Source: an uncultured Planctomycetales bacterium (GTDB lineage: Bacteria; Omnitrophota; Gorgyraeia; Zapsychrales; Fredricksoniimonadaceae). From it: a DNA stretch of 64,000 nt. How positions within the stretch are numbered: the stretch's first letter is position 1; every line of letters begins with the position of its first letter. A program made the translations under genes and the position numbers. The stretch is taken from positions 20,559 through 84,558 of the forward strand of contig CAZACW010000003.1 of the NCBI GenBank assembly GCA_964483785.1, in the 5' to 3' direction. Under the pieces are notes generated by a model, which ran no database searches, was not told the DNA's origin, and was given only the letters and a program-made list of their open reading frames with translations. Below, one piece after another: positions 3,001 to 40,876 of this stretch.

Positions 3001-6000
3001 CAAGGCTTGCCCATCTCCCAGGATTTCAAATTGGACCCTGTCCCTTTCTTCATGGGTGCTTTTCATCTGCTGTAAGAACTCTCTTGTTTTGGCCCAAACG
3101 CCTTGCCTGGCTTTCATGTTTTGCAAATTGGCGACAGCCTCTCCGAAGTTCCATCCCAAATCAGCCGTGACCGTGTCATTGGAATTAAACTGGATACGGG
3201 CATCCGCTATATAGCGTTTTAACTCACCCAGCAAGACCGTCTCATCCTGTCTTTTTGTGATCTGGATTTCATTTTGCTGTTGGGTAGTTTTTAAAGCAGA
3301 TACGCCGACAGGGACGTCTTTATTGCCCTTATAATGGACAACCACAGAATTTATTTTGCTTGGATCGATCCCGGCATCGGCCATCCACTGCACCGGCATG
3401 ACAAATGGGTTTCTGCCCTTTAATGATCTTACATTGACCACGGCTGAACTTTCCCTGGTCGGAGATTTTTGGTCAGGGGTGGAAATGACGGTAAAATTGT
3501 AAGGATAAATAAAGGGTAATTCATGGATTTGACCCGAGGCCAACAGGTTCTCAAAATAATTTGATTTATCCATTTTGGATGTAAATGTGACCTGATGGCC
3601 GAGCGCATCCGTAACCAAGACTTCGATATCATCATACATCTGCCCATCCTTGGAATCTGCGAAGAAATACCAATAATCCTGTTTACTGGCGTCTTGAGGA
3701 GGAGCTCCTGCCAATAAATCGATCCTCCGGTCATTCTCCGAGGTCAAGCCAAGATAGGTCTCATGTTCCGGGGCATAAATATAGTAGGCAAATTTACGGT
3801 CCTGTTCACCCTGTTGATTGACCAGATTCGCGATACTGGATTGAATATCGCCCTTGGTTGACATGGTGATCATTTCAGTCCAGGTTTTGTCCTGGTTATT
3901 CCCAAAATAATGCGTGATCAGCATGGTGAGAGTGCCGTCATTCGGATTGTAGTCCTTGGCAGCAGCGGAATACAGGGGCCTCACCTGTTCCCCTTGATCA
4001 TTGATTTCAAAAACATCGACGGTATCAGCAATGCCGTGGGCCACGGAATAGGAGCCGGGTTCATTTCTCCAATTGAAAACGACTTTTTTATGGCCAATGA
4101 TTTTCCATTGGATGCGTTCAAGCCCGTAACGGTAGGCCAATTGGATGGTCTTGGCCACCTGCTGATTGTCTGCGATGACCTCCTGATTCACCACCGTGGT
4201 GCTGCCATTGCTGAGGGCCTCATCCAACTTAATCTTGAAAGTCCCCTGCAGTCTGGATACGTCATAAGACCCTAAGACCGGAATTCTGTTGACCGGCTTG
4301 CCGTTTTGATAGTTGGTGTTTTCAGAATCCGGTATAAGATCAAGATCGAATATATTATCTGCTGTAGGCTGCCGGAATATGTTTTGGGTCCTGTGCTCCC
4401 AGAGGGCCTGGGCCATAGGAACATTTTGACTGGAACTGTCAAAAAAGGCGCGCGTCGCAGATACCCTTCCGCGATGTTTCGGGTCTGTGTCTTCATAGAA
4501 GATTTTGTGGTCCGCGCCTTGGATTTGCCAGGTCAGCAAGGATGAGTTTAGGCCGCTGAATCTCCTTGTTTCTCCTCTATTGTTGACCACGGTTTGCGGC
4601 ACCAAGGCCAGAGGGCCATTATAGGCATAGCGGCTTGTGACAAGGCCTTCAAAACTGATGCCCAGAGGGCTTTTGTAAACGCCTTGAGGTGCTGATTCCG
4701 CAAGCAGCAGGCCTGTGGCCATATCATCCATTTGGGTGGATGGTTTTTGATGGCCAAGGTCCATGACATCCCGTATCCTTTGTCCACGCGCAAAACGGTA
4801 ATGGCTGAAATCAAATTGGTGTACCCATTGATGGGTGGCTGGATTAAAAAGGTCCATGGTTGCGCCTGTTTCAATGCCGTCTCGGTCATGACGGGGTAAA
4901 TACCGTTGATTGATCCCGTCATCGGAGGCGGTCAACACATCCAGGGTCCTTCCAAAAGGTGATTGATACACCGTGCTGCTTGCCAAAGCCAGGCCCTGGC
5001 CCACCTGCTCAGCCCATTTGGTCACATTCAATTCCCAGCGCATGTGATTGCGGTCATAGGTGCTGGTGGTGGTGACACCGCCTTTTTGCTGACCGATTGT
5101 GGTCGTTGAAGATTGATGGGTCTCATCGCGGTCCATGTCTGTCCTGGTTACGACCCAGCGGTCCAAGCTGTCCTTGCCGGCCACCAGGATCGGCTGTGTC
5201 CATCTTGGATCAAATAATCTGAATGATCCTTGGCCATGCTCATCCAAATGGTAAATCCAGCTTCTTCCCGTGGTTTGATCATAGTTGAATAACCGGTCTG
5301 AGGCCAAGGTGGTGCCTGAGCCGCTTTTGGTTTCCGATGCCAGGGGCACCACGCCCGAGAATTTGCTGCGGTCATAATCAAGCTGCGTATTTTGGGTTAC
5401 TGTATTTCCCCCTATTTGGTCCGCGTCCCTGTTCGATTGAACGACGCCCGATGCATTGATGACAAGGGAATGCGTTATGTTGGTCGACAGATTCAAGGAT
5501 TCAACGGGCAAGGTAAACCCTGATCTTTGCAGGTTTCTGTCCTGGCCCATGATAGGCGATGTGTTGGAGGTGCGAAGCGCCCCCGGGACAGGCCGGAGTA
5601 AACGCTGGGCGATTTGCTCAACATCCAAGGGCCCTGTCATGTCATCGCCGTTAAAGAAAACTTCTGAATGTGGAGGCAGGCCATAGGCGTTTCTCTGGTA
5701 TTCCGTAATTTCATTCAGGGTCACTTCAGAGTCCGGATATTCATGGTCGGTAAAAATTTGCAGCCTGCGTTCATTGTTGGTGCGGCCGATGTAAACTACC
5801 TTTTTGGTGATATGATGGTCTCCGGCCTTTCTTTCAAAGTTGGCATAGAGGGTGATGGTCACAGCTTCAGCTTGGGCTTTGCCCTGGGGTGTTTTGGCCA
5901 GTTCAGCCACGGCATTGGCTTGGGCCATGTATTCCGTCACGCCGGCTAATCTCTGGACATGGGTTGACCTATAGGGATTAGGATAAATATAGGTCCCGAC

Positions 6001-9000
6001 TTCCAGGTGGAGTTTCATATCATAGGCAGGAACAATGATATGTTCTTCATCAACGCTGTATTTTAATAAACCATTGCGGTACACCTTTAATACGGGTTTT
6101 CCAGTTGTTGGGCTTGGGGTGATTTTATGGACATCCGTATCTAAAGGATAGATAATCGTCGTAAATGGTCCTGTGGTCATCTGTAAATCTGCATAACCTT
6201 GCAATTGTGCATTGGCTTTTTGTTCATCTGTCCATTGTTCGAACTGAGGATCAAAGACCCCCCTGACCCAGGTCGAATTACGGATGTTTGCGCCTGTGGT
6301 GGGCTCAGGAATGATTCTTCCTGGGACAATGCCCCAGGGCATTTTTCTGACTTGGGAGACGATCCCGGCACCGCCTTCAAATCCAGGGTCCCCGCGGATG
6401 GCATGGCCCATGTTTTCGGCGTTGATTCGACCAATGGCGGCATTGATTTCTCTTTGCTGTAAATAAGCCAGCGACCTGGTCAAATGCAGATAAACAGTGG
6501 TCCCGTCCGCCTTGCTTTCAATGGTGGCCTCTGTATTTCCGCTTGGCCTGATATAACGCCCATTTTGGGCTTGGATGATCCTTCGGTAATGGTCGACCTC
6601 TTTGTCGCCGATATGGATGTCCACGCGTGTCATTTCATCCGTGACCACCTTGGCCGGCAAGGGGATAATGGACGGCGGCTTGAGGGTAGGCCTTCCGATC
6701 CTGAAAATATTGATCTGATGTTCTGACAAAGATTTTTGCAGAAGAGGCGCTGTGGCCCTTGTGCCTTCTTGAGTGTTATACCCAAAACCCGTTGGAATGT
6801 TCGAATGTGCGGCTTGAGGCAAATTACCGTCATTGGCATCGGCAACGATTCTTAACGTTTTCAAATAACCGTCGCGGATCTTGGAGGCTTTTTCAACGAT
6901 TTCCGGATGTTGGTGGGTGTAAGCGTAGTTGATGATTTCATTGAGGACTTGCACGGCTTCGGAGGTGACCTCAAACATGACGGCCTTTCCGAAACCGTGG
7001 GCACGGGCATCGGCATCAGCCAAACTCAATCCCCTGATCTCAAAACGGCGGCCGTTAGCGATATAATAATCATTGATCCCGAATTCTGCATCCACCCTTA
7101 ACCACCAGGCCATGACATCCTCGATGGTCATTTTATTGGATTGCATGAACAGTTCCATGCCCTTGCTTAAGAAGGTACGCGTATTAGCGTCAGAGGAGAG
7201 ATAGCTGTTGATGCCGGGTTTTTGCTGGCCGCCGGCCTTATACAATCCTTTTTGGGGATCGTAACGAGTATCTAAGGCTTCTGACATTTGACGGTACTGT
7301 TCGTCCAATTGACTTCCGATGCTTCCATTGAAAAGCCGGTTGAATCCGCTTTGCTGCTGTTGAAGCCCTGGGAGCATGATGTGCCTATATTCCCCCATCG
7401 CCCCCACGGTCAAGGCCAGTGGCTCGGTGCCGTTTTCATTTTTCCAATTATTGCCAAGCCATACGGCCAGGGCATTGATGATATCGTCATTGCGGGTGTA
7501 GGTGTTGTCGCCTTTTAAATAAAGGGCATTTCTTAAATTCAGCAAGGACATGAGGATTGAGGCATTGGGGCCTGGCCCGGGCGCGCCATCGCCTTGGGCG
7601 CGGCGGAAATCATACACATCGTAATATTCCGCGAAGCCTTGAAATCCCGTTTTTTGGGCATTAAAGATGGTGCGGATGAAAGCCTCCAGGGGCTGGATTC
7701 GGTTCCAATCATTGGCATACACCGCGAATGTCAGCCCCAGGGATTGATCGAACATATAGCCGCGGCGGTTGGATTGGCCGGCATGGATATAATCCATGCT
7801 TTGTAAAGCGCCGCTGGCTGTCCTTTGATGAAACGGATCCCCTCCAAGGGCGGCTTGGTAGATTTCAACGCCCCCCTGCTGCATCACGCTTGTAATCTTA
7901 TCATAAGTCTTCAAGTCCCTCTCCACCTGTTCGGCGTTCTCTTCAACGCCGTTGATGGTCGGAAAAAACAGCCTGTAGCTTTCCCTGCCCTTGGCATCAC
8001 GCTCTACGATGGCAAAAACCGGACGGTTGTTTTCCGTCATACCGATCACAAAACCTTTCATCATCTGGGCATGGGCCTCGGCCTTGGTATAGGTATGCAC
8101 CTTGCCGCTGAACCACCCATTATCGAAAGCATACCCGCTGATGCCGGAACCCCGGACATTGGCCTTGTTGATCGTGGTGATTTCCTCGAGCTGGGTCCTT
8201 AATTTAGTGTCATAGAGGCCCCAAAAATTAACGGATATAATTGGACCGTCGACATGGGGAAATGGCGCCCGCAGTGGATTGCCGCTGCCGGTTTCCTGTT
8301 CTATTTTGTTGGCCAATTGGTAAAAATTGATTTCTATGCCTGGTAACAAGGAACGGAAAACAACCGGCGCGTTGGGGCCTGCGATGTCTCTTAAGGCAAC
8401 AGCATCTTGCGGGCCGTGGTTCAAGGCCCAGGCCGCTGCGTAATTCACATTAAATGCGCCGCTTAAGGGATTAAACGGTATATTCCTGGCAGCCCTGCTC
8501 AAGGGGCTGTCTTTTAAGGTGGTGGTGGCGGCGTTAAGTACCCTTAAAGCATCGCCCATTTGGCGGGCGATTTTGTCATAGCCATATTTGCCTTCGATAT
8601 AATGTTGTAATTGTGTCATCTGTTCCTGGCCCAATTCTCCATTAATCATGCGGCGGGCTTGCTGGCGGAAAATATCCTTTTCAGGATCAGGCATCTGGTC
8701 CCAATTGGCCGTAGAACCGGATTGATGATAAACATATTGCGCGACAAAATCCATAAATTGGGTTTCGGTCGGCATGGTCATGAGGTCAGGACGGTTAAAA
8801 ATGTCCCAGCCGAAATCGAGGATGCTGCCTACCGGTACCTTCATGTTAGGCACAAAGGAAAGGCCGAGATTTACCAAAAAAACGGCCCGGTTGAAACGCT
8901 GTTTATTTTGTAAATAGACTTGGTAACGTTGATTTTGTTTGTTTTCAACTTCCGCCAAGAAACGGTCCGCGAAGGCCTCAGACCGTAATTGAACAAGATA

Positions 9001-11889
9001 ATTTCGGCCTAAAATGATTTTATGCGTGTTGTTGGGCTCATCTACGAATACAAAGGTCATGGTTTCTGAATCTGTGGTCGGTACGTATTTCAATTTATGC
9101 CATTGACCGTTGATCTGGACGACCCTTAATACACCTTCTTTCGGGTCTTCTGCATTTCTCCACTGGGTCCGGCTGATGAATCGTATTGGTTTGTAAGAGG
9201 GGCCTTGATGCGCGCTTTCGGCATTTTCGACCTCTACACCCAAAAGAAGATCATTGCCTTTGGGCAGTTCGGCATTCGGATAAAATTTATGCGCCAGGGT
9301 CCTGGCCTGGGTGCCGTCCAGTTCTGCCAAGATTGAACGAAAACCAATGACGTTTTCCCGGGTGATCCTTTGGTTTCTGGCCACATCCAGCATGGTCTGG
9401 GCCATGGTCTCATTGGTCATCATCAGCCCTTCCCTGACCTGGCCATTGATTTCGCCCTGGTACCAAACTACAAACGGGTTCATGTTGAAGTCGAAATCCT
9501 CCGCTTCGATGACGGACAAGCGTTGAAATAGCTTTGGGTCCTTGATATGCGCCCATTGCAAGGGGTCGGTAATACGTATCTTGGGTACATAGATGGCGAT
9601 CTGCAGATTATTTTTGATGGCATCCAGGAAAATTTTGGGATCGTTAAACCTGACCAGAGGAGAAAATAAGGCTTTTTCATTCAAATTGGCCAGAATGGCC
9701 ACTGGCCCGCCTTTTTTAAAAAATAATTCGCGTTGAATATTGTCCCTATTCTCTTGGGCTTGGACACTCAGAAGTCTCTGTGGTTCGCTGACTAACTGCG
9801 GCCTGACATTGGAACGAAAATGATTTTCAATAAGGTTCGCTGGAACCATGGTCATGGGAGGTGTGGCCATGGCCTCAAATCGTTGCATCTCAGATTGAGG
9901 AAATGACGGAAAACTGTTTTCATCCATCTGTGTTCTTGTAGTTGTGGGGAGAAACGGCAAAGGAACAGCGGAAGGCTGTACCGAAGCGGGAACCACCCTT
10001 GCAGGAATTGTTGCTGGAGCTGTCCCGATGGCCGCCGCGGGCATATGGAAATTTGCCGTTTCATTGGGATGGACGATCGTATTGTCAGGTGTGATGGTCC
10101 TGGTACCTTGAGGCCCGGTGACAGTCACCCGGCCTTCCTGGATCAGACGGTTGATCGTCATGCGTTGGGATTTGGCTAGGGTATTGTTATAGGCTTGGAT
10201 TTCTGCGGAGCCCATGAAGGTCGTATACAATGATCCCTGGATGCCGGCATTGATCACATGTTCCGGCGGCGGCGCACTGCCGCCGGCCGCTGCAGGTCCA
10301 TGGGCAGGCAGGACCGCGGCCGGCGCTGGAAGCTCTTCGGAACGCACTCCCCCGGCTGCTGCTGTGCGGACAAGGTCCAAATTAAGGACGATTTTATGCG
10401 GCGCTTGATTGGGCAATGACCGCAAATGATAATTGGGCACATCGGTGACAATATCACCGTCAATGCTCAATACGCCTTGGCGGGCCAGCACATCAATGGC
10501 TTTTTTCCAAACATTCAGGTCCTGGCCGGTCTCTTTATACAGCGTGCTGTTGATCAGTCCATACACGCTCCCTGCCCTGCCTTCGGCGTTGATGGCATGC
10601 AGGTCGGAATGATTCTCGGCGTATTGCTGGACAGCGGCAGCCGGCGTATTTAAAAACGGGTTTTCCGCGGCAGATGCCGTGTACATCCCGGCCAAACTGA
10701 CAGGAATGCTCAACAAGGCGCCAAATGCCAAGGCCTTTTTAGCCAGCTGTGCCGAATCCGGACCCTTGACGATCACCATGGCCGCGTTTTGCCAGGACAC
10801 ACCGCCTGAGAAATATTTTCTCGCCACGGTCTCATTGCTCGGCGTCACTTCTTCCTTGATGTAGTTGTACACGCCTTTTTTGTAAGACACCAGATACTGC
10901 CGGAAGATTTCCTCATCCACGTTTTTGTCCGTGACTTCAATGCCGTTGATTTTGCGGCGGTTGACATATCCTTTGGCCATGAGGCTTTCCTTTAATTTGT
11001 TTTTGTACCAAAGGGCCAGGACCAGCGAATTGTAGACCTGCCTTAAATTGGCGAAATTCTCCCCTGTGTTGACTTCTTTTTCCAGGATGGGCAGAATGAC
11101 CTGGCGGATAAGTTGATTGCTTAATTGATGGGCGTCCGGGGTTGGGTGTTTGGCATCAAGGTTTATGTTCTGATCACTGCTCACTGAGCGCTGATCAAGC
11201 GCATGATGCTTATGCATGGACAGATAATCTTCTTCCAACATCACCTTTAATTTGCTTTTGATGATCACGGCTGTATTGGCAGCGGCATTTTCATACACCA
11301 CGGCCTTCTCCGGGACGATCCACACCTTATTGAAGGTGTTCACCGGAATATCGGTGCTGCCCAATTTTTCATAGGCCTGCTGATAGATGGCGCGCCAGAA
11401 GGCACGGCCTACCTTGCCGTCCGGATACATCACAGAAGCCGTAACTTGTTTTAAGAGATAATCCTGGGCCAAGAGTTCCTTGCCCATTTCCGTGATCCCG
11501 AATTCCTTAGGGACGATATGCTCTTTTTCATAGGGGGATAAATTCACCCACATGTCTTTTTGGGGGATGGTCAAAGAGGCGAGAAAATATTTGATCAATC
11601 TTTCCGCTTCATGCTTGAGAAAGACTTTTTTCATCAGGGAGTCATCATCAAATTTAAGTGTGCTGTCCCCTTGCGAAAGCACGAATTCGAATTTGAAGGG
11701 ATTGTTTTTGTAAATTTTAAGGCCGCGGATGAGAGGCGGTGAAAAGCGCGGGGTCAGTGCGACCATTTGACCGGGCGCAGGCAGAAAAGGCACATTGGCC
11801 AAAACAGGTTCAGAGACCAGGGTATTGACCAGGAAGGTGGTAAGAACAGTCCATAAAATAGGTCTATTTATATACTTGTTTTTCAACAT
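1..11889 (-). CDS. Giant secreted protein, 5' end of gene present (ATG at 11889). The ORF runs off the window start, at least 3963 codons. N-terminal signal peptide MLKNKYINRPILWTVLTTFLVNTLVSEPVLA. Hydrophobic TM-like stretch near the window edge. No domain recognised by eye.
   Basis: Hand translation of the minus frame (codon first base at plus coordinates divisible by 3) gave no stop in about 25 sampled 60-nt lines. These were 1-480, 2041-2100, 5821-5880, 7381-7500 and 10681-11889. A TAA lies immediately upstream of the ATG at 11889-11887. The six-frame track lists no minus ORF in this frame across 1-11889, which fits a single open frame lacking an in-window stop. All listed minus ORFs here share the other frame. 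Confidence 0.6.
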   Translation of the reverse strand, partial: MLKNKYINRPILWTVLTTFLVNTLVSEPVLANVPFLPAPGQMVALTPRFSPPLIRGLKIYKNNPFKFEFVLSQGDSTLKFDDDSLMKKVFLKHEAERLIKYFLASLTIPQKDMWVNLSPYEKEHIVPKEFGITEMGKELLAQDYLLKQVTASVMYPDGKVGRAFWRAIYQQAYEKLGSTDIPVNTFNKVWIVPEKAVVYENAAANTAVIIKSKLKVMLEEDYLSMHKHHALDQRSVSSDQNINLDAKHPTPDAHQLSNQLIRQVILPILEKEVNTGENFANLRQVYNSLVLALWYKNKLKESLMAKGYVNRRKINGIEVTDKNVDEEIFRQYLVSYKKGVYNYIKEEVTPSNETVARKYFSGGVSWQNAAMVIVKGPDSAQLAKKALAFGALLSIPVSLAGMYTASAAENPFLNTPAAAVQQYAENHSDLHAINAEGRAGSVYGLINSTLYKETGQDLNVWKKAIDVLARQGVLSIDGDIVTDVPNYHLRSLPNQAPHKIVLNLDLVRTAAAGGVRSEELPAPAAVLPAHGPAAAGGSAPPPEHVINAGIQGSLYTTFMGSAEIQAYNNTLAKSQRMTINRLIQEGRVTVTGPQGTRTITPDNTIVHPNETANFHMPAAAIGTAPATIPARVVPASVQPSAVPLPFLPTTTRTQMDENSFPSFPQSEMQRFEAMATPPMTMVPANLIENHFRSNVRPQLVSEPQRLLSVQAQENRDNIQRELFFKKGGPVAILANLNEKALFSPLVRFNDPKIFLDAIKNNLQIAIYVPKIRITDPLQWAHIKDPKLFQRLSVIEAEDFDFNMNPFVVWYQGEINGQVREGLMMTNETMAQTMLDVARNQRITRENVIGFRSILAELDGTQARTLAHKFYPNAELPKGNDLLLGVEVENAESAHQGPSYKPIRFISRTQWRNAEDPKEGVLRVVQINGQWHKLKYVPTTDSETMTFVFVDEPNNTHKIILGRNYLVQLRSEAFADRFLAEVENKQNQRYQVYLQNKQRFNRAVFLVNLGLSFVPNMKVPVGSILDFGWDIFNRPDLMTMPTETQFMDFVAQYVYHQSGSTANWDQMPDPEKDIFRQQARRMINGELGQEQMTQLQHYIEGKYGYDKIARQMGDALRVLNAATTTLKDSPLSRAARNIPFNPLSGAFNVNYAAAWALNHGPQDAVALRDIAGPNAPVVFRSLLPGIEINFYQLANKIEQETGSGNPLRAPFPHVDGPIISVNFWGLYDTKLRTQLEEITTINKANVRGSGISGYAFDNGWFSGKVHTYTKAEAHAQMMKGFVIGMTENNRPVFAIVERDAKGRESYRLFFPTINGVEENAEQVERDLKTYDKITSVMQQGGVEIYQAALGGDPFHQRTASGALQSMDYIHAGQSNRRGYMFDQSLGLTFAVYANDWNRIQPLEAFIRTIFNAQKTGFQGFAEYYDVYDFRRAQGDGAPGPGPNASILMSLLNLRNALYLKGDNTYTRNDDIINALAVWLGNNWKNENGTEPLALTVGAMGEYRHIMLPGLQQQQSGFNRLFNGSIGSQLDEQYRQMSEALDTRYDPQKGLYKAGGQQKPGINSYLSSDANTRTFLSKGMELFMQSNKMTIEDVMAWWLRVDAEFGINDYYIANGRRFEIRGLSLADADARAHGFGKAVMFEVTSEAVQVLNEIINYAYTHQHPEIVEKASKIRDGYLKTLRIVADANDGNLPQAAHSNIPTGFGYNTQEGTRATAPLLQKSLSEHQINIFRIGRPTLKPPSIIPLPAKVVTDEMTRVDIHIGDKEVDHYRRIIQAQNGRYIRPSGNTEATIESKADGTTVYLHLTRSLAYLQQREINAAIGRINAENMGHAIRGDPGFEGGAGIVSQVRKMPWGIVPGRIIPEPTTGANIRNSTWVRGVFDPQFEQWTDEQKANAQLQGYADLQMTTGPFTTIIYPLDTDVHKITPSPTTGKPVLKVYRNGLLKYSVDEEHIIVPAYDMKLHLEVGTYIYPNPYRSTHVQRLAGVTEYMAQANAVAELAKTPQGKAQAEAVTITLYANFERKAGDHHITKKVVYIGRTNNERRLQIFTDHEYPDSEVTLNEITEYQRNAYGLPPHSEVFFNGDDMTGPLDVEQIAQRLLRPVPGALRTSNTSPIMGQDRNLQRSGFTLPVESLNLSTNITHSLVINASGVVQSNRDADQIGGNTVTQNTQLDYDRSKFSGVVPLASETKSGSGTTLASDRLFNYDQTTGRSWIYHLDEHGQGSFRLFDPRWTQPILVAGKDSLDRWVVTRTDMDRDETHQSSTTTIGQQKGGVTTTSTYDRNHMRWELNVTKWAEQVGQGLALASSTVYQSPFGRTLDVLTASDDGINQRYLPRHDRDGIETGATMDLFNPATHQWVHQFDFSHYRFARGQRIRDVMDLGHQKPSTQMDDMATGLLLAESAPQGVYKSPLGISFEGLVTSRYAYNGPLALVPQTVVNNRGETRRFSGLNSSLLTWQIQGADHKIFYEDTDPKHRGRVSATRAFFDSSSQNVPMAQALWEHRTQNIFRQPTADNIFDLDLIPDSENTNYQNGKPVNRIPVLGSYDVSRLQGTFKIKLDEALSNGSTTVVNQEVIADNQQVAKTIQLAYRYGLERIQWKIIGHKKVVFNWRNEPGSYSVAHGIADTVDVFEINDQGEQVRPLYSAAAKDYNPNDGTLTMLITHYFGNNQDKTWTEMITMSTKGDIQSSIANLVNQQGEQDRKFAYYIYAPEHETYLGLTSENDRRIDLLAGAPPQDASKQDYWYFFADSKDGQMYDDIEVLVTDALGHQVTFTSKMDKSNYFENLLASGQIHELPFIYPYNFTVISTPDQKSPTRESSAVVNVRSLKGRNPFVMPVQWMADAGIDPSKINSVVVHYKGNKDVPVGVSALKTTQQQNEIQITKRQDETVLLGELKRYIADARIQFNSNDTVTADLGWNFGEAVANLQNMKARQGVWAKTREFLQQMKSTHEERDRVQFEILGDGQALMSRYDRDEKLGQWTPLTTIYTFDDLNEKNQPTANVYSGYPGFTVAEEISIVENGYSRMYLLSNGVGIPSIQLFPFAHAGNRPSQTTWQGDAPIIVPNNYGGGAAKAFRELTFNDLYMTFARSYFPKFNPNADHEAIDNVVLDRMRNNRETKPHPVGAFVYNTPFWKLHDLPDHPIPATADLIQIAKAWRNSHTGLIPLTHGTQEQSLDVAKQGDLLAALILSGDQEGIQIAQDILLYQTDKRPFSFWDSTGEGKVPVVNFLNINSGAPQRTTPDLNNPTYSTPKADSQAAITNAVYQLWKANGNPYARTMAMAMARTLVETFYSSDDEIGAFAEEKFVPQVKTLGLNFLGRPNNYLTRTNSKIFLLLNAMRQDTTLDADFRQFLGPRIESLQKFFDTYVMGRVKDESIVPYGFYRRQNGAIEFGEIPGSSSDTWFYFIEAAKAMGRIDDAKGIQLLDMMDRPFEVKTDGQVGLDIAIGPRQRVIAVDSTVNGLRTARLLGYQQAEDGFRRALAAYPRTPENMFPELIGINASAVDPRQGLDSGDMRRFYPRTDGPSPSWAPSLTAGADWLMAQQGGASVYNPAPKDRAQLSFAAPAAHSLFWVAMAYLPLASILLAPFINLLTGAVTKNLLQVRKFYLIGKVKASIPDFDMKDISAAYDLIAQTIEMTDQYGNPIPNPHQDRVHVLRKDIQGPRSLDILSANGFTALIALLKNIQAKDPTVINDDQIKAIINKWSQIFYEEFEKQATYWKTRGSILKSLRRIIGIRFRNNEEDTYTNPRYHPMTLINLYMWDEVKRIRQAEADKQGVKEQVGRSLEILNNEGQFRTWAQTKAKEARHPLLIGAARNLFLVYWIFIAAAFGRAEITHIQSMIHDHLYNNVLFSYIHQFAGSSTWGLLAAGIGLIMMVYMVPETKNPVLSPIAKWTRGLLALGGLGLGASWLMGFIGDYQINFLLPESLSISTGSQVIVHTLMQQVVQNTGLLCAGAAALTASWILDFIQGA

Positions 11890-18944: not shown

Positions 18945-19168
18945 GCCGCAAACATCCCTTTACCATGCGGGTCAAGCCGGGCCGTTACGTTTGGTGCAGC
19001 TGCGTTGAATCCAAGCGACTGCCTTTTTGCGACGGGTCCCATGTCCGGACCGGCAGTACGCCGATGTTTGTCGAGATCACGCAAGAGCAGGAAGTTTCCT
19101 GGTGCGGCTGTAAGATGAGCGCCAAAAAACCGTTTTGCGACGGGACCCACGAACGCGCGGGATCATAG
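18941..19168 (+). CDS. CDGSH iron-sulfur domain protein (two CDGSH-type motifs)
   Basis: From ATG 18941 the sequence is MSRKHPF ... CSCVESKRLPFCDGSHV ... CGCKMSAKKPFCDGTHE. That gives two C-x-C-x(n)-CDG(S/T)H motifs, about 75 aa. It is translationally coupled to the upstream gene. Confidence 0.65.
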   Translation: MSRKHPFTMRVKPGRYVWCSCVESKRLPFCDGSHVRTGSTPMFVEITQEQEVSWCGCKMSAKKPFCDGTHERAGS

Positions 19169-20134
19169 CAGGCTGTGGGCGGTTGATGAGGCAATGTCTT
19201 TAAGGGCTTTAAGCAATTGCCGGCCGTGGGTGTTCAGGCGGCTGTGGGTGCTGCGGGTAGAAAGATTCATCACTCCTAAAATTTCTTTGTTGTTTCTGAT
19301 GATGGGCACAATCAGCGCACATTTTAATTCCGGCTTAATCATCAAATGACGGATGCGGTTATTTTGACCTTGGGCCTGGACCATCATCGGCTTTTTGCTT
19401 TGGGCCGCCAAACCTGCGATACCCTCCCCTAATTTGATGCCCACGCCCTGGGCCTTGCCCAGATTCATGCCCTTGACCATTTGAACATTCAGCTCATCCG
19501 TGCGTTTGTTAAACACCATCAGCGACCCGCATTCAGCCTGGGTCAAGGCCATGGACAATTCCAATAAATTTTTGAACACGGATAAGGACGCCGGGGATGG
19601 TTTGAAGGCAGTGACAGGCGCATCGGTTTCCTTGGACATGATCCTTAAGGCATACTGGGACAATTCCGCAAAAAGATCGAGCATGGATTTCAAGCCGTTA
19701 AAGGTCACGGCCCTGATCTCATTTAAAGAAGCCAGAAATTCCGCGGGATCAGCCCCAAGATCTTGGGCCATGGCCTTGTATTGGGCATGTTCCAAGGGTT
19801 TGTTGATGATCACCGGGCCTATAATCAAATAGGCCAAATGGTCCAGGCCGGCCGCGGCCATGGGAACAGCGAAATAATGCAGGCCAAGCTGGTCCGCGGC
19901 CTTTAAATAAGGGCCCTCTTTTTGGAATTGGGAAAGAAAACCGGATCCTCCAAGGCCCTGAAAAGCGCCCCAGCGCAAGGCCGCCTGTATGCCGTGGCCG
20001 CTGTTTTGCGGTGCTAAGATCGGCCTGCCTTCAGAGTCCGTCATCATGATATGGATGCGCAGCACATCCATAAAATTCACAAGGATCTGGCCTAATTGGG
20101 GACTGGCCTGGATTTTATCAATGATCATTTTCAT
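19163..20134 (-). CDS. GAF-domain protein (C-terminal GAF, N-terminal uncharacterised sensor-like domain). Last gene of the HK-RR-GAF operon.
   Basis: 323 aa. The C-terminal LGEGIAGLAAQSKKPMMV ... ILGVMNLS is GAF-like. Its start overlaps the end of the response-regulator gene by 17 nt. Confidence 0.55.
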   Translation of the reverse strand: MKMIIDKIQASPQLGQILVNFMDVLRIHIMMTDSEGRPILAPQNSGHGIQAALRWGAFQGLGGSGFLSQFQKEGPYLKAADQLGLHYFAVPMAAAGLDHLAYLIIGPVIINKPLEHAQYKAMAQDLGADPAEFLASLNEIRAVTFNGLKSMLDLFAELSQYALRIMSKETDAPVTAFKPSPASLSVFKNLLELSMALTQAECGSLMVFNKRTDELNVQMVKGMNLGKAQGVGIKLGEGIAGLAAQSKKPMMVQAQGQNNRIRHLMIKPELKCALIVPIIRNNKEILGVMNLSTRSTHSRLNTHGRQLLKALKDIASSTAHSLL

Positions 20135-21503
20135 CGGTCAGCGGTATCCCGTATTTTTTCATATTATTGTAAAGCGTGGTGCGGTTGATCCCCAGTTTTT
20201 GCGCGGTCTTGCTGCGGTTGCCATGGCAGTCTTTCAAGGCCTTAAGAATAATGTCCTTGGCCGGACCCTTTAATCCTTCCTGAAGTGATTTAGGCTCAGC
20301 CTTGATTTTGCTGTTGACGAAATTTTTAGGTAAATCTTCCTTGCCGATCATTTTCTTTTTGGCGATAATGGCCGCCCCTTCAATGACGTTTTCCAATTGG
20401 CGCACATTGCCGGGCCAGGCATGGGTCTCAAACAAGGCCTGGACTTCCTCATCAATGCCGGTGATGCTTTTATGGTTTTTGTGGTTGGAGGCTTCGATGA
20501 AATGCTTGACCAGCAGGGAAATATCTTCCCGGCGCTCCCTTAAAGGAGGCATGTGCAAAGGCAGGACATGGATGCGGTAATACAGGTCTTCCCGGAAAGA
20601 GCCTTCTTCAACGAGCTGTTCTAAGTCCTGATTGGAAGCCACGATGACCCGGGCATTGGTCTTTAACGTCTGGGTGTCCCCCACCCTTTCAAAACCGCCG
20701 TCCTGCAGAATGCGCAGCAATTTCACCTGCAGATTGGGCGAACAGGAATTGATTTCATCTAAGAAGATGGTGCCGTTTTGGGCCATTTCAAAGCGGCCTT
20801 TTTTGTCCTTGATGGCGCCGGTAAAGGCCCCTTTGACATGGCCGAACAATTCGCTCTCCAGCAAGGTCTCGGAGAGGGCGCCGCAGCTGACCTCCACAAA
20901 GGGCATGCGGCGGCGTTTGGAGTCATTGTCGTGCACAGCCCTGGCTGCCAGGCCCTTGCCCGTGCCGCTTTCTCCGGTGATCATGATGGTCGCGTTGGTA
21001 TCAGCGACGGATTCGATAAGGCTGTACACCGATTGGATGGCACTGCTGCGGCCGATCATGCCGAAAAAAGAGCCGGCCTTGGCCTTGGGGCCGTGCTGAC
21101 GCAGCTGCTGGCTTTCCTGCAGCAGGCGCTTCTTCTCGATGATTTTGGCCATCAGGTCCTTGACCTGGTCATCCACGATCGGCTTGGTGATGTAATCAAA
21201 GGCGCCCATTTTCATGGCTTCCACCGCCGAAGCGATGCTGCCGTAGCCGGTGATCAGGACCACCTCGGTCAAGGGCGAGGTCTTCTTAATGAAGGCCAAA
21301 AGGTCAAGCCCGCTTTTATCCGGCAATTTCATGTCCGTCATAACAATGTCAAAGGAGCGCTGGGCCGCAAGATGCGAAGCTTCCTGGACGCTGGAGGCCA
21401 TGGCCGCGTCAAAGCCCGCGATCTTCATGGTTTCATACAAGGACTTGCGGATCAAAGGCTCATCATCGACGATCAGGATGGAGTAGGGGTTTAGGCTCAT
21501 CAT
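20118..21503 (-). CDS. Sigma-54-dependent response regulator, NtrC family (REC + AAA+ sigma-54 activator + Fis-type HTH). PrsR-like by context.
   Basis: REC domain (ILIVDDE ... D ... K). Walker A GESGTGKG, GAFTGA sigma-54 contact motif, ESELFGH, and a C-terminal HTH RSKTAQKLGINRTTLYNNMKKYGI. Confidence 0.9.
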   Translation of the reverse strand: MMSLNPYSILIVDDEPLIRKSLYETMKIAGFDAAMASSVQEASHLAAQRSFDIVMTDMKLPDKSGLDLLAFIKKTSPLTEVVLITGYGSIASAVEAMKMGAFDYITKPIVDDQVKDLMAKIIEKKRLLQESQQLRQHGPKAKAGSFFGMIGRSSAIQSVYSLIESVADTNATIMITGESGTGKGLAARAVHDNDSKRRRMPFVEVSCGALSETLLESELFGHVKGAFTGAIKDKKGRFEMAQNGTIFLDEINSCSPNLQVKLLRILQDGGFERVGDTQTLKTNARVIVASNQDLEQLVEEGSFREDLYYRIHVLPLHMPPLRERREDISLLVKHFIEASNHKNHKSITGIDEEVQALFETHAWPGNVRQLENVIEGAAIIAKKKMIGKEDLPKNFVNSKIKAEPKSLQEGLKGPAKDIILKALKDCHGNRSKTAQKLGINRTTLYNNMKKYGIPLTDENDH

Positions 21504-22756
21504 GGGGCCTCGGCCAGGGGCAGTTTGATGCTGAAGGTCGTCCCTTCCTTCAAACGGCTTTTGACCTTGATTTTTCCATTATACAATTTGACGATTTCAT
21601 TGACCACGGTCAAGCCTAAGCCGCAGCCTTTGTCAATGTCCTTGGTGGTAAAAAACGGCTCGAAAATTTTGTCTAAATCAGCGGCCGTGATGCCGTGCCC
21701 GGTATCGGTGATGGCAATTTTGATAAACCCGTCTTCCGTCAGGGTGCGGATTTCGATGCAGCCGTTTTTGTCAATGGCATCAATGGCGTTTTTGATCAAA
21801 TTGCTGAAAACGCGCTCCAGGCCCCAGTCCGTTATTTCAGGGACATTGTGCGCGAAATGCTTGACGAGCTTGATGTTTTTGGCGGCCAGGTACGGATAAA
21901 GTTCCTTAAGGGCACCCTCGATGGTTTTATGGATATCGGCCTTGCGGGCGCTTTCAGGGGATTGGCGCGCGCAGGCCAGCAGGTTTTTGACGATATTGGC
22001 CATGCGTTTAAGGCCCATCTGCACCTCGGTCAAGTATTCTTTTAAGACCTCATCGTTTTGAGCGTGAGACATGCACAGATGATTGTAGCGCATCACCCCG
22101 TCTAAAGGATTGTTGAATTCATGGGCGATCCCTCCTGCCAATTTGCCGAGGGAGACCAGCCGCTCCTGCGATTCGATCTGCTTTTTCAATCCGCTGGTCT
22201 CCTCGCGGGCATGGCCCAATTGATGGGCCATCACGATGCGCTGATAATTAAGCGCAATTTGGTTCGACAAAAAATCCAACAGCTGGTGTTCCCGGTGGGT
22301 AAATGGTTTGGGAGGATTTTTGGCGTAAATGTGCACACTGCCCGTCAGCTTGTCCTTGATCATCAAGGGCGAAGCTATCGCGGTTTTGCTTCTATAGCCT
22401 TTGCCCGGGCCTAAGGTTTTAAGCAATTCCTCTTGATCGTTGTCTTTAAGGCCCACCGAGGCCTTAAGAAGCATCTGGTGGGTCTGGGGATCCAGCAGAA
22501 AAATGGCCCCGCGCCGGGCCTTGAAGACCGGCAAGGTGCTTTGTAAGGCGTCTTTGAAAAGATGCTGGGTGTCGATGGATTCTGAACACAGCACACAGAC
22601 CGCATTGATTTTTTCAAGAAGATTCGACAGCGGAGACGGCGCTTTGTGCTTTTTGAGGGGCATAATCCTGGCTGAGGCAGTCAATGTGTCTATCATATTA
22701 TCGTCAAATGAAAGGATCGTCAAACATCGAATGCATAAAAAAAGCAGACCTTTCAC
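21500..22756 (-). CDS. Cytoplasmic sensor histidine kinase with GAF domain (HisKA + HATPase_c). The GTG start at 22756 is doubtful. ATG at 22696 is more likely.
   Basis: H-box LAGGIAHEFNNPL. N-box and G-boxes NLIKNAIDA ... DTGHGI ... GLGLTVV. No TM segments. Overlaps the RR gene by 4 nt. Confidence 0.85.
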   Translation of the reverse strand: MKGLLFLCIRCLTILSFDDNMIDTLTASARIMPLKKHKAPSPLSNLLEKINAVCVLCSESIDTQHLFKDALQSTLPVFKARRGAIFLLDPQTHQMLLKASVGLKDNDQEELLKTLGPGKGYRSKTAIASPLMIKDKLTGSVHIYAKNPPKPFTHREHQLLDFLSNQIALNYQRIVMAHQLGHAREETSGLKKQIESQERLVSLGKLAGGIAHEFNNPLDGVMRYNHLCMSHAQNDEVLKEYLTEVQMGLKRMANIVKNLLACARQSPESARKADIHKTIEGALKELYPYLAAKNIKLVKHFAHNVPEITDWGLERVFSNLIKNAIDAIDKNGCIEIRTLTEDGFIKIAITDTGHGITAADLDKIFEPFFTTKDIDKGCGLGLTVVNEIVKLYNGKIKVKSRLKEGTTFSIKLPLAEAP

Positions 22757-22768
22757 AAGGACTGCTTT
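22737..22768 (-). terminator. Putative intrinsic terminator or attenuator between the sugar-transferase gene and the histidine-kinase gene
   Basis: Minus-strand RNA is AAAGCAG(U)CC-UUGUGAAA-GG(U)CUGCUUU followed by UUUUUUU. It ends at the GTG/ATG region of the kinase ORF. Confidence 0.35.
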
Positions 22769-22819: not shown

Positions 22820-23623
22820 TCACCGGGCGCCGAAGCCGGTCAAAATGACCCGGAATGTGCGCAAGATGATCCTGATATCGGTCAGGAAGCTGATGTTCTT
22901 GATGTAGAGGATATCGTATTTGACTTTTTTGCGCACATCCGCGATGGTCTCATCGTAGCGGTGGTGCACTTGGGCCAGGCCGGTGATGCCGGGTTTGACT
23001 CTCAGGCGTTTTTTGTAATCACCGATTTGGCCTTCCAATTGCTTGACAAATACCGGGCGCTCAGGCCTGGGGCCGATAACGCTCATCTCCCCTTTTAACA
23101 CATTGATAAATTGAGGGATCTCATCCAGACGGCTTTTGCGCAAAAATTGGCCGATGGGTGTGATTCTTTTGTCCTTGGCCTTGGCCCAAACAGGCCCTGA
23201 ATCTTTTTCCGCATCGATATTCATGGTGCGGAATTTATAGATTTCAAAATTTTTGCCGTCCTTGCCGGAGCGGATCTGGCTGTAAAAAATCGGACCTTTG
23301 GAGCTGAGCTTAATCAAAGCCGCAACCAACAGGCAGATAGGAGATAAAAGCACCAGACAAACGCAGGAAATGAGGATATCCATGATTCTTTTGGAGACAT
23401 GATAGGCCCTTCTTAAAAAAGCCACGATCATGGTCAAGACGCCGCTGCCGAAAAGCAGAAAGCTGGAAGGTTCAGGGGCCCGGGAATGGGGCTGGGCGAG
23501 CAAGGCATTGGCCTTATGCACGGCAACCGTGGCGGCCCAGGCATGGGCGTCCATGCCAAGCACAGCGATTAAGGCTGCTCCGAAACAAATAAAAGCCATG
23601 GTTTTAGAGGTCGATTTCATCAT
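22820..23623 (-). CDS. PglC/WbaP-C-terminal-like polyprenyl-phosphate sugar phosphotransferase with an about 80-aa N-terminal extension containing a signal-peptide-like helix and a PEP-CTERM-like motif
   Basis: Core KRIMDILISCVCLVLLSPICLLVAALIKLSSKGPIFYSQIRSGKDGKNFEIYKFRTM ... GPRPER ... PGITGLAQV are small sugar-transferase signatures. The extension reads MMKSTSKTMAFICFGAALIAVLGMDAHAWA-ATVAV ... RAPEPSSFLLFGSGVLTMIVAFLRRAYH, that is PEP, a hydrophobic stretch, then RR. No in-frame stop between the extension and the core. Confidence 0.8.
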   Translation of the reverse strand: MMKSTSKTMAFICFGAALIAVLGMDAHAWAATVAVHKANALLAQPHSRAPEPSSFLLFGSGVLTMIVAFLRRAYHVSKRIMDILISCVCLVLLSPICLLVAALIKLSSKGPIFYSQIRSGKDGKNFEIYKFRTMNIDAEKDSGPVWAKAKDKRITPIGQFLRKSRLDEIPQFINVLKGEMSVIGPRPERPVFVKQLEGQIGDYKKRLRVKPGITGLAQVHHRYDETIADVRKKVKYDILYIKNISFLTDIRIILRTFRVILTGFGAR

Positions 23624-23671
23624 TTTTGCTGTTTTTAGAGATTAAAAATTTGGCTTACATTAGGGTATAGC

Positions 23672-23688
23672 AGCAATTACCGTGCCAA
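23672..23688 (-). promoter_or_regulatory. Sigma-54 (-24/-12) promoter TTGGCACGGTAATTGCT upstream of the PEP-CTERM/sugar-transferase gene
   Basis: On the minus strand: TGGCAC-GGTAA-TTGCT. This is an exact match to TGGCAC-N5-TTGCW with correct 5-nt spacing. It lies about 50 nt upstream of the start codon at 23623, inside an AT-rich 240-nt gap. Confidence 0.65.
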
Positions 23689-23862
23689 ACCGCTAAAATC
23701 GCGCAAAATATTTAAATTTTTATAACTTGATTATTTCCAGTATGATAGAGAATAAATATAAAAATAAGATTAAAATCCCATAAAAAATACGTTCAAATAA
23801 GCAAAATAGAGGTATTTAAATGTATAAGTTTTTCAACACCCTATGTCTGATTTGACTTTATA

Positions 23863-24495
23863 TTAAGGTAGGTATTGCGATAATTTTGGACCTAACATGC
23901 TGGCAAATGCATCGATACGTTTTGAGGCCTCATTTTGACGCCCATCAATAATGTCAGCAGAAATCCTAATTAGAGCAGTACCTGTTCTCTTACCGGTCAA
24001 GGTATTATAGGCTGATAAGGTCTGCTGTTTCCAATAGCTGTGGGTGTACAAATTACCCACCTTAAACCAATAATAGACAATTTGCTGGTTTTGGTCATTA
24101 TCCAGCAAAAGCCAGTTGACCTTGATCTTGGGCCGAGAAGGGTTAATTATAATAGTATTCTTGCCCTTGTCAAGGATAGAAAATCCTGAATCCTTGTAAA
24201 AAATATCCGGCGGATTGGCGGCTTTGGGATTGCTTTGGGAATAGGCAATATATAAATAAATCCGCCCATGTCTGGCAGAATCATAACGCCTCAGAAAGGC
24301 GTTCTTGGTTTCCAAAATAGACACGTCCACCCTGCCCAAAGGCAGTTCCTGCGCAGTCCAGGGGCCGATGGTGGCGGGGAATTTTTCAACGCTGATGGAG
24401 TCCGGGTGATTAAAAGAAGTGGAATAATATTCCCATGAAATGAACATGGTGAAGATGGCCAGGGTCAGAATAAAAAAATAGTAGCGTGAGGGCAT
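23863..24495 (-). CDS. EpsI-family exosortase-associated protein
   Basis: 210 aa, N-terminal TM, IGPWTAQELP motif, periplasmic domain. It sits immediately downstream of the exosortase gene. Confidence 0.55.
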   Translation of the reverse strand: MPSRYYFFILTLAIFTMFISWEYYSTSFNHPDSISVEKFPATIGPWTAQELPLGRVDVSILETKNAFLRRYDSARHGRIYLYIAYSQSNPKAANPPDIFYKDSGFSILDKGKNTIIINPSRPKIKVNWLLLDNDQNQQIVYYWFKVGNLYTHSYWKQQTLSAYNTLTGKRTGTALIRISADIIDGRQNEASKRIDAFASMLGPKLSQYLP

Positions 24496-24496
24496 T

Positions 24497-25375
24497 TTAG
24501 GTCAATAGTTTTTTAACGGTAAAAAGCATCAAAAAAGCAAAAATAAAGACCATGTACCCTGATAATCCATGGAGAAAGCCCTGGGTGTATTGCGTTCCCC
24601 AGATCTCCCCTACCGCAGCCAAGAACACGATGCGCAGGGCATTGGTGACCACGGCAATGGGGATGGCCGAGGCAAAAAGCAGGATTTTTTTCGACAATCT
24701 CAATTTCAAGCGGTAGGCAAAGATACTGCCTAAGGCAGCCAGGGAGATCAGGGACCTTAAGCCGCCGCAGGAATCCTCCACTTCCACGTAACTATGGGAC
24801 ATCATGATCAAACTGCTCTGCTGCAGCGCGGGAAGGCCCATGAGATTGAGGACCAAGGTGGCCAGGTGCGCGGCGATGATTTTCAATTTAAAACACACAA
24901 AAGCGACCAGGATGATGGGCATGGGCACCATGAAGGCCAGAAACAATACCGGAAAACGGATTTCCTTGAGCGTCCTTTCCCCGTAAAAATACAGGATAAG
25001 GCCAGCGAGGATGATGATCATGGCGAAACCTGAGGTGAAATACACATGCAGAATGGCGCTGGCCCAATAGAGGATGACGCCTGCGCTAAATAGTTCAAAT
25101 CCCCAATGGGAGGGTTTAACCGGGATTTTTTTAAGGACAGCCCTTTTTTTCCAAATCAAAAATGCGGAGATGACGGGGATGAGAATGCCGTGGCTGTAAT
25201 AGGAATTGTCCGCGAACCAGCGGTCCCACATCCACAGCATGGTCGGGAAAAACGCGGCCAGCAAAAAGACAAATACCAGCAATTCCCGTTGATGGTCCCT
25301 GATCAGGGCCTTGGTCTGGAGCATATCATGGGTGCCGCGCCTTTGTCCAGGCGGCCTGCTGTTGGGCCGTGACAA
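24497..25375 (-). CDS. Exosortase (EpsH/Xrt family transpeptidase)
   Basis: 292 aa polytopic membrane protein. Conserved Cys in VEDSCGGLRSLISLAALG and Asn/Arg in VVTNALRIVFLA match the exosortase catalytic signature. Genomic context is EpsI, GT2, deacetylase. Confidence 0.75.
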   Translation of the reverse strand: MSRPNSRPPGQRRGTHDMLQTKALIRDHQRELLVFVFLLAAFFPTMLWMWDRWFADNSYYSHGILIPVISAFLIWKKRAVLKKIPVKPSHWGFELFSAGVILYWASAILHVYFTSGFAMIIILAGLILYFYGERTLKEIRFPVLFLAFMVPMPIILVAFVCFKLKIIAAHLATLVLNLMGLPALQQSSLIMMSHSYVEVEDSCGGLRSLISLAALGSIFAYRLKLRLSKKILLFASAIPIAVVTNALRIVFLAAVGEIWGTQYTQGFLHGLSGYMVFIFAFLMLFTVKKLLT

Positions 25376-40767: not shown

Positions 40768-40876
40768 AATGGTGAATATGGCAACTGGCTACCTGTCCGG
40801 GCTACGGCCCGGGGTAAGGCCCTATAGCTTTGTGCCCCACCCTTTCGGGTGGTTTACCTTTTACATATCTAAGCGA

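Follow-up and report, generated by a model that had tools for sequence, protein, structure and literature searches.

A conserved, probable sigma-54 promoter with a candidate enhancer upstream of a PEP-CTERM-like priming sugar transferase gene in Omnitrophota

The DNA analysed here (the window) comprises 64,000 nucleotides of contig CAZACW010000003.1 (positions 20,559 to 84,558, assembly GCA_964483785.1) from an uncultured bacterium that was submitted as Planctomycetales and is placed by GTDB in the Omnitrophota; an identical contig is present in sample SRR12313480. Its minus strand carries an exosortase gene (24497-25375; TIGR02602, 171.9 bits against a cutoff of 105.55), followed by the gene for EpsI (23863-24495; TIGR02914, 98.7 bits against 42.8) and then, after an intergenic gap of 239 nt, by the gene for a small monotopic polyprenyl-phosphate sugar-phosphate transferase of 267 amino acids (aa; 22820..23623). 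The transferase scores 312 bits, above cutoff, with TIGR03025 (exopolysaccharide polyprenyl glycosylphosphotransferase), and its catalytic domain (PF02397, 1e-69) spans aa 78-261. Further downstream on the same strand are the genes for a soluble histidine kinase, for a response regulator of the NtrC type and for a PocR-plus-GAF sensory protein. Our subject is the gap (23624..23862), which extends from the EpsI stop codon (23865-23863) to the transferase ATG (23623) and contains a predicted sigma-54 promoter and, further upstream, a candidate enhancer.

The promoter core, TTGGCACGGTAATTGCT, occupies positions 23688-23672 of the minus strand, with the GG (-25/-24) at 23686-23685 and the GC (-13/-12) at 23674-23673. 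It agrees with the extended consensus YTGGCACGrNNNTTGCW at every position, and the GG and GC are exactly 10 nt apart within TGGCAC-N5-TTGCW, which is the canonical spacing. The -12 C lies 50 nt from the transferase ATG, and the last base of the motif 49 nt. Over the 174 nt upstream of the motif, and likewise across 23700-23850, the GC content is 20-23%, as against 45-57% in the flanking genes. An earlier note, made from the sequence of this window, had described an exact -24/-12 motif about 50 nt before the ATG and AT-rich DNA upstream of it in a gap of ~240 nt, and on both points the sequence and the measurements agree with it. Judged by the geometry of sigma-54 promoters, transcription on the minus strand is predicted to start at 23660..23662, ~12 nt downstream of the -12 C, and a start near 23661 would give a leader of ~38 nt with no Shine-Dalgarno sequence, which the genes of this locus generally lack. 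Scanning the gap for sigma-70-like sites on the minus strand returned none, and an Rfam scan of it gave no match of significance. The folding of the gap as RNA does not go beyond shuffled controls (z = -0.06), and no structured RNA or riboswitch was found there. Repeats sought inside the gap alone were just AT-rich low-complexity pairs and hence uninformative, so that a comparison between loci was needed.

How much weight can the motif in the window carry? On its own, a single exact match is weak evidence: TGGCAC-N5-TTGC occurs once in the 64 kb, counting both strands, where 0.13 copies are expected, and at least one copy is present in 13 of 100 shuffled sequences. Weighted for a position within the gap and on the right strand, the chance is roughly 2e-4 (~0.13 x 239/128000). 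When two mismatches are allowed, the window contains 69 matches as against 92 expected, that is, no enrichment and no second convincing sigma-54 site. Phylogenetic footprinting is more informative. The transferase protein was scanned against one genome per species, giving 41 loci (cited below by L-number), of which the 25 closest belong to metagenome-assembled genomes of Candidatus Omnitrophota, some labelled by their submitters as 'uncultured Planctomycetales'; two of these 25 are truncated on the upstream side, leaving 23 that can be assessed. Upstream of the orthologue and on the same strand, a -24/-12 element (GG-N10-GC) is found in 20/23 loci with at least 8 of 10 bases matching, and in 18 with at least 9 of 10. 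The remainder of these 471 kb, searched on both strands, yields 10 matches at 9/10 or better, which corresponds to ~0.005 expected per upstream region. When 21 promoter regions are aligned without gaps on the motif, high information content is confined to TTGGCAC and TTGCT, the flanking sequences being unrelated. The 16 loci from outside the Omnitrophota encode ordinary transferases of ~470 aa and have no -24/-12 element. Since the motif has been kept in 20 of the 23 loci while its flanks diverged, it represents a promoter rather than a chance match, and we consider it with good confidence to be a functional sigma-54 promoter of the transferase gene, subject to enhancer-dependent activation. 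The footprint, the orientation and the distance thus back the view of the earlier note that a sigma-54 promoter drives the PEP-CTERM/sugar-transferase gene.

Comparison of the upstream regions also revealed a second conserved element. The hexamer with the strongest over-representation in 21 of them is TCAACA/TGTTGA, present in 13 where 3.6 are expected, and it expands to an 18-bp dyad, TGTTKA-N6-TMAACA, that occurs with at most two mismatches in 14 of the 21 regions as against 1.8% of shuffled regions. The dyad is mostly found at -137 to -178 from the T of TGGCAC, with the mode near -150, and pairs of dyads 20-21 bp apart are present in several deeper-branching loci. Its density is ~29-fold higher in a 290-nt zone upstream of the promoter (17 copies in 5.8 kb) than elsewhere (23 copies in 230 kb), and it is absent from the three loci that have no promoter (L007, L014 and L023). 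The copy in the window, TGTTGA-AAAACT-TATACA (23838-23821, minus strand), is an imperfect dyad and, by virtue of this conservation between loci, the best candidate for an enhancer (upstream activating sequence). Its start lies 151 nt before the T of TGGCAC; it follows the EpsI stop codon by 25 nt, and its centre is at about -168 from the predicted start. Inverted repeats shared between sigma-54 promoters, for which the earlier note had suggested searching the AT-rich DNA, therefore do exist, as a conserved dyad ~150 nt upstream of the -24 box.

The pair of elements can be used as a single search pattern, TGTTKA-N6-TMAACA-N(110-140)-TTGGCAY-N5-TTGCT, and a metagenome scan with it returned 44 dyad-plus-promoter sites. 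Judged by their downstream context, 20 belong to transferase/EpsI loci, 7 precede genes for proteins with a terminal PEP-CTERM signal, 5 precede genes for small MerR-type helix-turn-helix (HTH) proteins and 3 genes for receiver-like proteins; the 9 that remain are other or unassignable, and it is just these unassigned sites that bound the chance rate of the scan, at most ~9/44. Within the PEP-CTERM group four of the five proteins tested reach the Pfam gathering score, and one has an ice-binding-like domain too. The recovery of PEP-CTERM genes constitutes independent support, since the motif had been defined without them, and dyad and promoter together appear, from their distribution, to work as a regulatory module within a PEP-CTERM-related regulon.

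Several features of the more distant sites are worth recording. The MerR-type proteins, at L047, L065, L066, L069 and L073, are 62-87 aa long and conserved (...TITEVAE.IG..PKTLARWEK.GKI..PKRDWRGWR.Y...), and four of these five loci have a TGTCC..GGACA palindrome immediately upstream. At the GC-rich loci L054, L058, L059 and L077, on contigs of 51-56% GC that probably belong to another phylum, repeats of the TTGCAGCAA/TTGCTGCAA type stand on either side of the dyad, and the genes downstream encode small receiver-like proteins at L054, L058 and L077 and a PEP-CTERM-like protein at L059; the AT-rich dyad may be shared more widely or have a role in bending. Neither the MerR-like nor the receiver-like targets have homologues in the window or in L001-L042. 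Besides the TTGCAGCAA-type repeats, arrays of TGTC-containing tandem repeats with a period of ~10-11 nt (e.g. TGTCTAGGCTTGTCATAGACTGTCC) accompany the dyad in some other clades, namely in the deeper-branching relatives L008, L009, L011, L013, L016, L018 and L019, where they lie ~60-130 nt upstream of the -24 box, and at several metagenome sites (L043, L046, L078 and L082). They are absent from the clade of the window, and may be bound by a second regulator or else constitute the activator's true site.

What protein would act from such an enhancer? The regulator encoded at 20118..21503 (minus strand) is a sigma-54 enhancer-binding response regulator, composed of a receiver domain (REC) with Asp57 as the predicted acceptor, a Sigma54_activat AAA+ domain (PF00158, 6e-66) with GAFTGA at aa 225, an AAA lid and a Fis-type HTH_8 domain. 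The GAFTGA loop is the contact to sigma-54, so that this organism is expected to use sigma-54. All scores against the named NCBIfam families are below cutoff (AtoC 422 versus 714 bits, NtrC 393 versus 559, PrsR 377 versus 503). The kinase gene (21500..22663, minus strand, as placed by an independent gene call) encodes a GAF-HisKA-HATPase protein of 387 aa in which no hydrophobic or transmembrane segment was found; the longest open reading frame (ORF) would start at a GTG at 22756, overlapping the terminator described below, and this is probably the wrong start. The PocR-plus-GAF gene (19163..20134, minus strand) shares 17 nt with the regulator gene, and the two are conserved together.

Within the 6 kb downstream of the transferase locus that were searched in the relatives, an orthologue of the activator is present in 11 loci, and in three further loci an orthologue of the kinase runs to the end of the contig. 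The recognition helix, LG(I/V)(N/D)RTTLY, is conserved in all activator orthologues, including one-component versions of the GAF type: in L021 and L022 the receiver domain is not covered by the alignment to the window regulator, which begins behind it, and in L021 Pfam identifies a GAF domain in place of the receiver; the L021 activator is a one-component GAF-AAA+-HTH protein and not a response regulator. A tblastn search with an E. coli RpoN query matched two related loci, again L021 and also L025. The rpoN ORF of L021 (11616-12698, minus strand; Pfam Sigma54_CBD 1e-55 and Sigma54_DBD 4e-50) sits directly beside the activator gene, and the partial match in L025 (10528-10794, minus strand) comes ~2 kb after the activator gene, on the far side of the PocR/GAF gene. 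On the strength of domains and gene neighbourhood the neighbouring regulator is probably the activator of the promoter, and the chances that the dyad is its binding site appear about evenly balanced. The connection drawn in the earlier note between promoter and NtrC-type regulator thus remains plausible (GAFTGA, Fis-type HTH, synteny in many relatives), except that the two are not adjacent: the regulator is two genes downstream of the promoter, and a terminator and a sigma-70-like promoter lie between the regulator and transferase genes, so that the link is one of neighbourhood and not of a shared transcript.

The terminator follows the transferase gene (22737..22765, minus strand) and consists of a stem-loop at 22765-22744 (GCAGUCCUU-GUGA-AAGGUCUGC) and a U7 tract at 22743-22737, with a folding energy of -18 kcal/mol and z = -3.35; one mismatch in the stem had caused a pattern scan to overlook it. 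An equivalent hairpin and T-run are present in L002, L005, L006 and L025, and since in these loci as in the window the terminator comes after the transferase gene, the latter is a one-gene unit. L001 and L003 seem to have no terminator, and such lineages may couple the transferase and kinase/regulator units. The sigma-70-like promoter of the kinase/regulator unit, TTGACG-17-TAATAT (22723-22695, minus strand), is a consensus match only, at 9/12 positions; comparable TTGAC-type boxes are found in L002, L003, L005 and L025, and the kinase start of the independent gene call, at 22663, is downstream of both terminator and box. Most likely, to judge from this layout, the sigma-54 promoter produces a monocistronic transferase mRNA of ~925 nt, while the kinase, regulator and PocR/GAF genes presumably form a separate basal unit. 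Single-gene units are the arrangement found for most PEP-CTERM genes (Haft et al., 2006; PMC1569441). A transferase-kinase-regulator operon with positive autoregulation was considered and dropped for the window, where terminator and sigma-70-like promoter intervene; feedback onto the kinase/regulator unit by read-through is possible.

Between dyad and promoter there is a site, AATCAAGTTATAA (23732-23720, minus strand), that resembles those of the integration host factor (IHF) and differs at one position from the consensus WATCAANNNNTTR. IHF sites with at most one mismatch are present in 13 of 21 loci as against 32% of shuffles, many of them 45-66 nt upstream of the -24 box. Involvement of IHF is weakly suggested by this pattern, and at 20% GC the curvature intrinsic to the DNA would do just as well.

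These elements can be combined into a plausible mechanism. The soluble GAF kinase, possibly together with the PocR/GAF protein, would sense a cytoplasmic ligand and phosphorylate the regulator, which should already be present before induction, because the kinase/regulator unit has its own sigma-70-type promoter. RNA polymerase-sigma-54 would be held in a closed complex at 23688-23672. The phosphorylated NtrC-type regulator, encoded 1.3 kb downstream (20118-21503), would oligomerise on the dyad at 23838-23821, and the AT-rich spacer of ~125 bp would bend or loop, intrinsically or with the help of an IHF/HU-like protein. ATP hydrolysis by the activator would then remodel the closed complex and open the promoter, with transcription from near 23661. 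The outcome would be tight off/on, enhancer-dependent expression of one gene, that of the priming transferase of an exopolysaccharide/exosortase locus. As the dyad-plus-promoter module precedes canonical PEP-CTERM genes elsewhere, the activator probably co-induces glycan initiation and exosortase cargo.

Several observations weigh against this mechanism, or parts of it. The promoter is absent at three orthologous Omnitrophota loci (L007, L014 and L023); at L023 the protein also has no N-terminal extension, and L007 has no EpsI neighbour. rpoN is not in the 64-kb window, and its presence in the genome is expected from the GAFTGA activator and from the relatives. A search of the gap for the exact IHF consensus, WATCAANNNNTTR, found none, so that of the IHF-assisted looping proposed in the earlier note there remain the one-mismatch site and a weak enrichment across relatives. 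The dyad pattern was defined on the same sequences in which it was counted, and the window copy has two mismatches; the TGTC arrays or TTGCAGCAA-type repeats of other clades could be the true activator sites. This last point belongs to an alternative that we find doubtful but of some substance, in which the dyad is the site of a repressor or of a nucleoid-bending protein, or a weak end-of-operon hairpin, and the real activator sites are elsewhere in the AT-rich DNA. It is favoured not only by the TGTC repeats that adjoin the dyad but also by the TTGCAGCAA/TTGCTGCAA repeats, which flank it symmetrically in the GC-rich metagenome sites, as activator sites placed about a bending site would be expected to do, and by the resemblance of the half-site TCAACA to part of the IHF core. 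However, within the clade of the window the gap has no other conserved block, and the dyad, at 18 bp, is palindromic and lies at a distance typical of enhancers; with A/U-rich 6-mers for stems and no T-run, it does not qualify as a terminator.

The identity of the activator may also be questioned: the promoter could be real and yet respond to another enhancer-binding protein, encoded elsewhere, with the neighbouring kinase and regulator controlling other targets. L011, L015 and L016 have the promoter and 6 kb of downstream sequence, yet no activator gene there, and the regulator of the window is in a separate transcription unit and below the curated cutoff of every named family. Inserted genes, as in L013 and L019, can however place the regulator past the 6 kb searched, and the orthologues in 11 loci, with the three contigs that end in the kinase, speak against unrelated targets; moreover, in L021 the sensory domain has been swapped to GAF, yet DNA-binding helix, dyad and promoter are all kept. 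We consider a different activator unlikely. Somewhat less likely still is that the transferase gene is mainly transcribed by read-through of the long upstream operon, with the sigma-54 site acting inside it as a promoter that is minor or conditional. The genes before the gap follow one another closely on this strand, and the scan for terminator-like sites found none between the EpsI stop codon and the promoter, so that read-through may add some transcription. Nevertheless, a 239-nt gap of 20% GC with a conserved promoter and dyad has been kept in ~20 species, the transferase gene has a terminator of its own, and the module also precedes stand-alone PEP-CTERM genes. As for the motif being a functionless chance match in an AT-rich spacer, the ~13% of shuffles in which an exact match is expected per 64-kb window would leave room for it, but the 20/23 orthologous regions, against a background of ~0.005 per region, and the status of the motif as the only conserved block effectively refute it, and we give it hardly any credence.

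The promoter is thus real and of an ordinary sigma-54 type; more unusual is the invariant N-terminal module of the transferase that it precedes. The N-terminus consists of a signal peptide with an AXA-type site, a variable linker and a PEP-CTERM-like segment, APEPSSFLLFGSGVLTMIVAFLRR (helix aa 49-72), which has the layout of a PEP-CTERM sorting domain: a PEP motif, a hydrophobic helix and a basic cluster. The window protein scores 19.4 bits with PF07589, where the gathering cutoff is 20.7, and 47 of 48 homologues match this family at E <= 0.01 (best 6.5e-6), several of them with a precomputed PF07589 assignment. P50-E51-P52, K78-R79 and P95 are invariant in the 48 homologues, which are 56-78% identical to the window protein. 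The segment is at aa 49-72 of 267, before the cytoplasmic catalytic domain, and not at the extreme C-terminus of a secreted protein. It is the sole PEP-CTERM-like motif in the window, and its gene sits directly downstream of those for exosortase and EpsI. At least 120 clusters at 90% identity have this ~260-300-aa form, all annotated as generic transferases, and the literature searched never mentions PEP-CTERM together with phosphoglycosyl transferase or monotopic; Omnitrophota occur in it alongside exosortase, sigma-54 or PEP-CTERM in single passing mentions. For PglC, both ends of the reentrant helix, which contains Lys7-Arg8 and Ser23-Pro24, are cytoplasmic (PMC6133551). The window protein resembles PglC-type transferases in its PF02397 domain and in K78-R79 and S94-P95, which are 16 residues apart, exactly the spacing in PglC; it differs in that the domain is preceded by the signal peptide, the variable periplasmic linker and the invariant PEP-helix-RR. 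From this we infer a self-consistent topology, with the PEP motif in the periplasm and the RR in the cytoplasm, followed by the reentrant helix and the cytoplasmic catalytic domain.

What, then, is the role of this module? Metagenome variants of the transferase, at L051 and L060, begin directly with MPEPATITLLGTGF (MPEP) and have no signal peptide. Their promoter is 47-48 nt away, too close for a signal or periplasmic peptide, and the PEP-helix module therefore exists in forms with no releasable cargo; these variants favour docking over cargo release. Tentatively, and as a speculation that is less likely than otherwise, the sigma-54/dyad module may define an Omnitrophota-centred counterpart of the PEP-CTERM box, with a priming phosphoglycosyl transferase that has acquired an exosortase recognition signal as its flagship target; the neighbouring exosortase would clip the N-terminal peptide or dock the transferase, physically coupling glycan initiation and cargo sorting, both induced by one activator.

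The nearest known system is indeed the proteobacterial 'PEP-CTERM box', where sigma-54 and PrsR, of the PrsK/PrsR two-component system, control PEP-CTERM genes (PMC1569441) and for which an RpoN-dependent pepA of Aquincola, with a mapped start, gives experimental support (PMC9850573). Both systems combine a -24/-12 promoter with an upstream conserved activator-type motif in long non-coding regions, mostly before single-gene units with a PEP-CTERM signal. Both have an NtrC-type REC-AAA+-Fis regulator and a kinase near exosortase/EpsI and glycosyltransferase genes, as well as genes for tetratricopeptide-repeat (TPR) proteins, which are in the same operon in the relatives L019 and L021. The regulated genes encode PEP-CTERM proteins in either case, if the PEP-helix-RR of the transferase and the canonical PEP-CTERM genes preceded by the module are so counted. 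However, the DNA motif was in 2006 found only in Proteobacteria (PMC1569441), whereas the window is from Omnitrophota, and its target is an enzyme with the PEP-CTERM-like segment N-terminal to the catalytic domain. The regulator, at 377 bits, does not reach the PrsR cutoff (TIGR02915, 502.6), and the kinase scores 88 bits where PrsK (TIGR02916) requires 300, being soluble with a GAF domain while PrsK is transmembrane. Motif 1 of the PEP-CTERM box, compared here by its published description, is 17 nt long, ends in TTTACA and has a spacer of ~63 nt, in contrast to the 18-bp dyad TGTTKA-N6-TMAACA with a spacer of ~115-135 nt and no TTTACA in the gap. The window system thus works like the PrsK/PrsR box but is not a member of it, as it lacks the features of PrsR, PrsK and motif 1.

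Classical promoters of the NtrC/AtoC/ZraR type, such as glnAp2, share with it the consensus core, a dyad more than 100 bp upstream and a REC-AAA+(GAFTGA)-HTH_8 activator; they are activated by DNA looping with or without IHF, and the same is expected here. They differ in that the window regulator is far below the AtoC and NtrC equivalog cutoffs and that the gap has no exact IHF site. In the syp system of Vibrio fischeri, the sigma-54 activator SypG acts with syp enhancer sequences upstream of polysaccharide operons. The likeness is in the use of a sigma-54/response-regulator switch before exopolysaccharide genes and in an enhancer sequence repeated across the promoters of one regulon; the phylum and the enhancer sequence are unrelated, syp has no exosortase/PEP-CTERM component, and the promoter of the window controls one gene.

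The promoter lies within a long minus-strand gene series. This begins with a cyclic di-GMP (c-di-GMP) riboswitch and a gene for a 1110-aa Ig-domain protein and continues with those for a secretin, a GspE-type ATPase, GspF, pseudopilins, GspK, a PilM/GspL-like protein, GspM, a polysaccharide deacetylase and a GT2 glycosyltransferase, after which come exosortase, EpsI, the promoter gap, the sugar transferase, the GAF kinase, the regulator and the PocR-plus-GAF protein. Many additional glycosyltransferase genes, and one for an O-antigen-ligase-like protein, precede the riboswitch. Deacetylase, GT2, exosortase, EpsI, gap and transferase have a conserved order in the relatives; EpsI is immediately upstream of the transferase in most of them, with the exosortase next where the contig reaches that far, and kinase, regulator and PocR/GAF come after the transferase, sometimes past 1-4.5 kb of inserted genes. 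In the deeper-branching L019, L011 and L021 the inserted genes encode canonical PEP-CTERM proteins and a TPR protein. The riboswitch, of the c-di-GMP-I (GGC variant) class (40776-40867, minus strand; RF03167, 60.8 bits, gathering score 59), sits in the 370-nt gap upstream of the gene for the Ig-domain (Big_7) protein, the first in the long succession of genes on this strand that runs through type II secretion/pilus-like, deacetylase and GT2 genes to exosortase and EpsI. The GspE-type ATPase encoded there has an N-terminus that resembles MshE and its binding domain for c-di-GMP. Secretion and exosortase genes, which precede the promoter gap, appear to be under separate control through c-di-GMP, by way of the riboswitch and the MshE-type ATPase. 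At the far end, positions 1-11889 of the minus strand form a single open frame of 3963 codons or more, belonging to a giant gene that runs past the window start; alternative genetic codes were tested for this seemingly gene-free first 12 kb, and what was found instead is the giant minus-strand ORF that runs off the window.

The findings bear on the regulation and architecture of surface-polymer systems in several ways. Control of PEP-CTERM/exosortase systems by sigma-54 and an enhancer would reach beyond the Proteobacteria, to the uncultured phylum Omnitrophota, and the dyad and -24/-12 box provide a concrete pair of cis-elements by which members of the regulon can be found in metagenomes. The tight off/on switch would sit on the first committed, undecaprenyl-phosphate-consuming step in the synthesis of a surface polymer, and together with the separate c-di-GMP riboswitch it suggests that one surface structure is under the control of two signals. 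Finally, a PEP-CTERM-like module fused before a monotopic priming transferase is a widespread and hitherto undescribed architecture, and it offers a testable handle on recognition and action of the exosortase, which are so far poorly defined experimentally.

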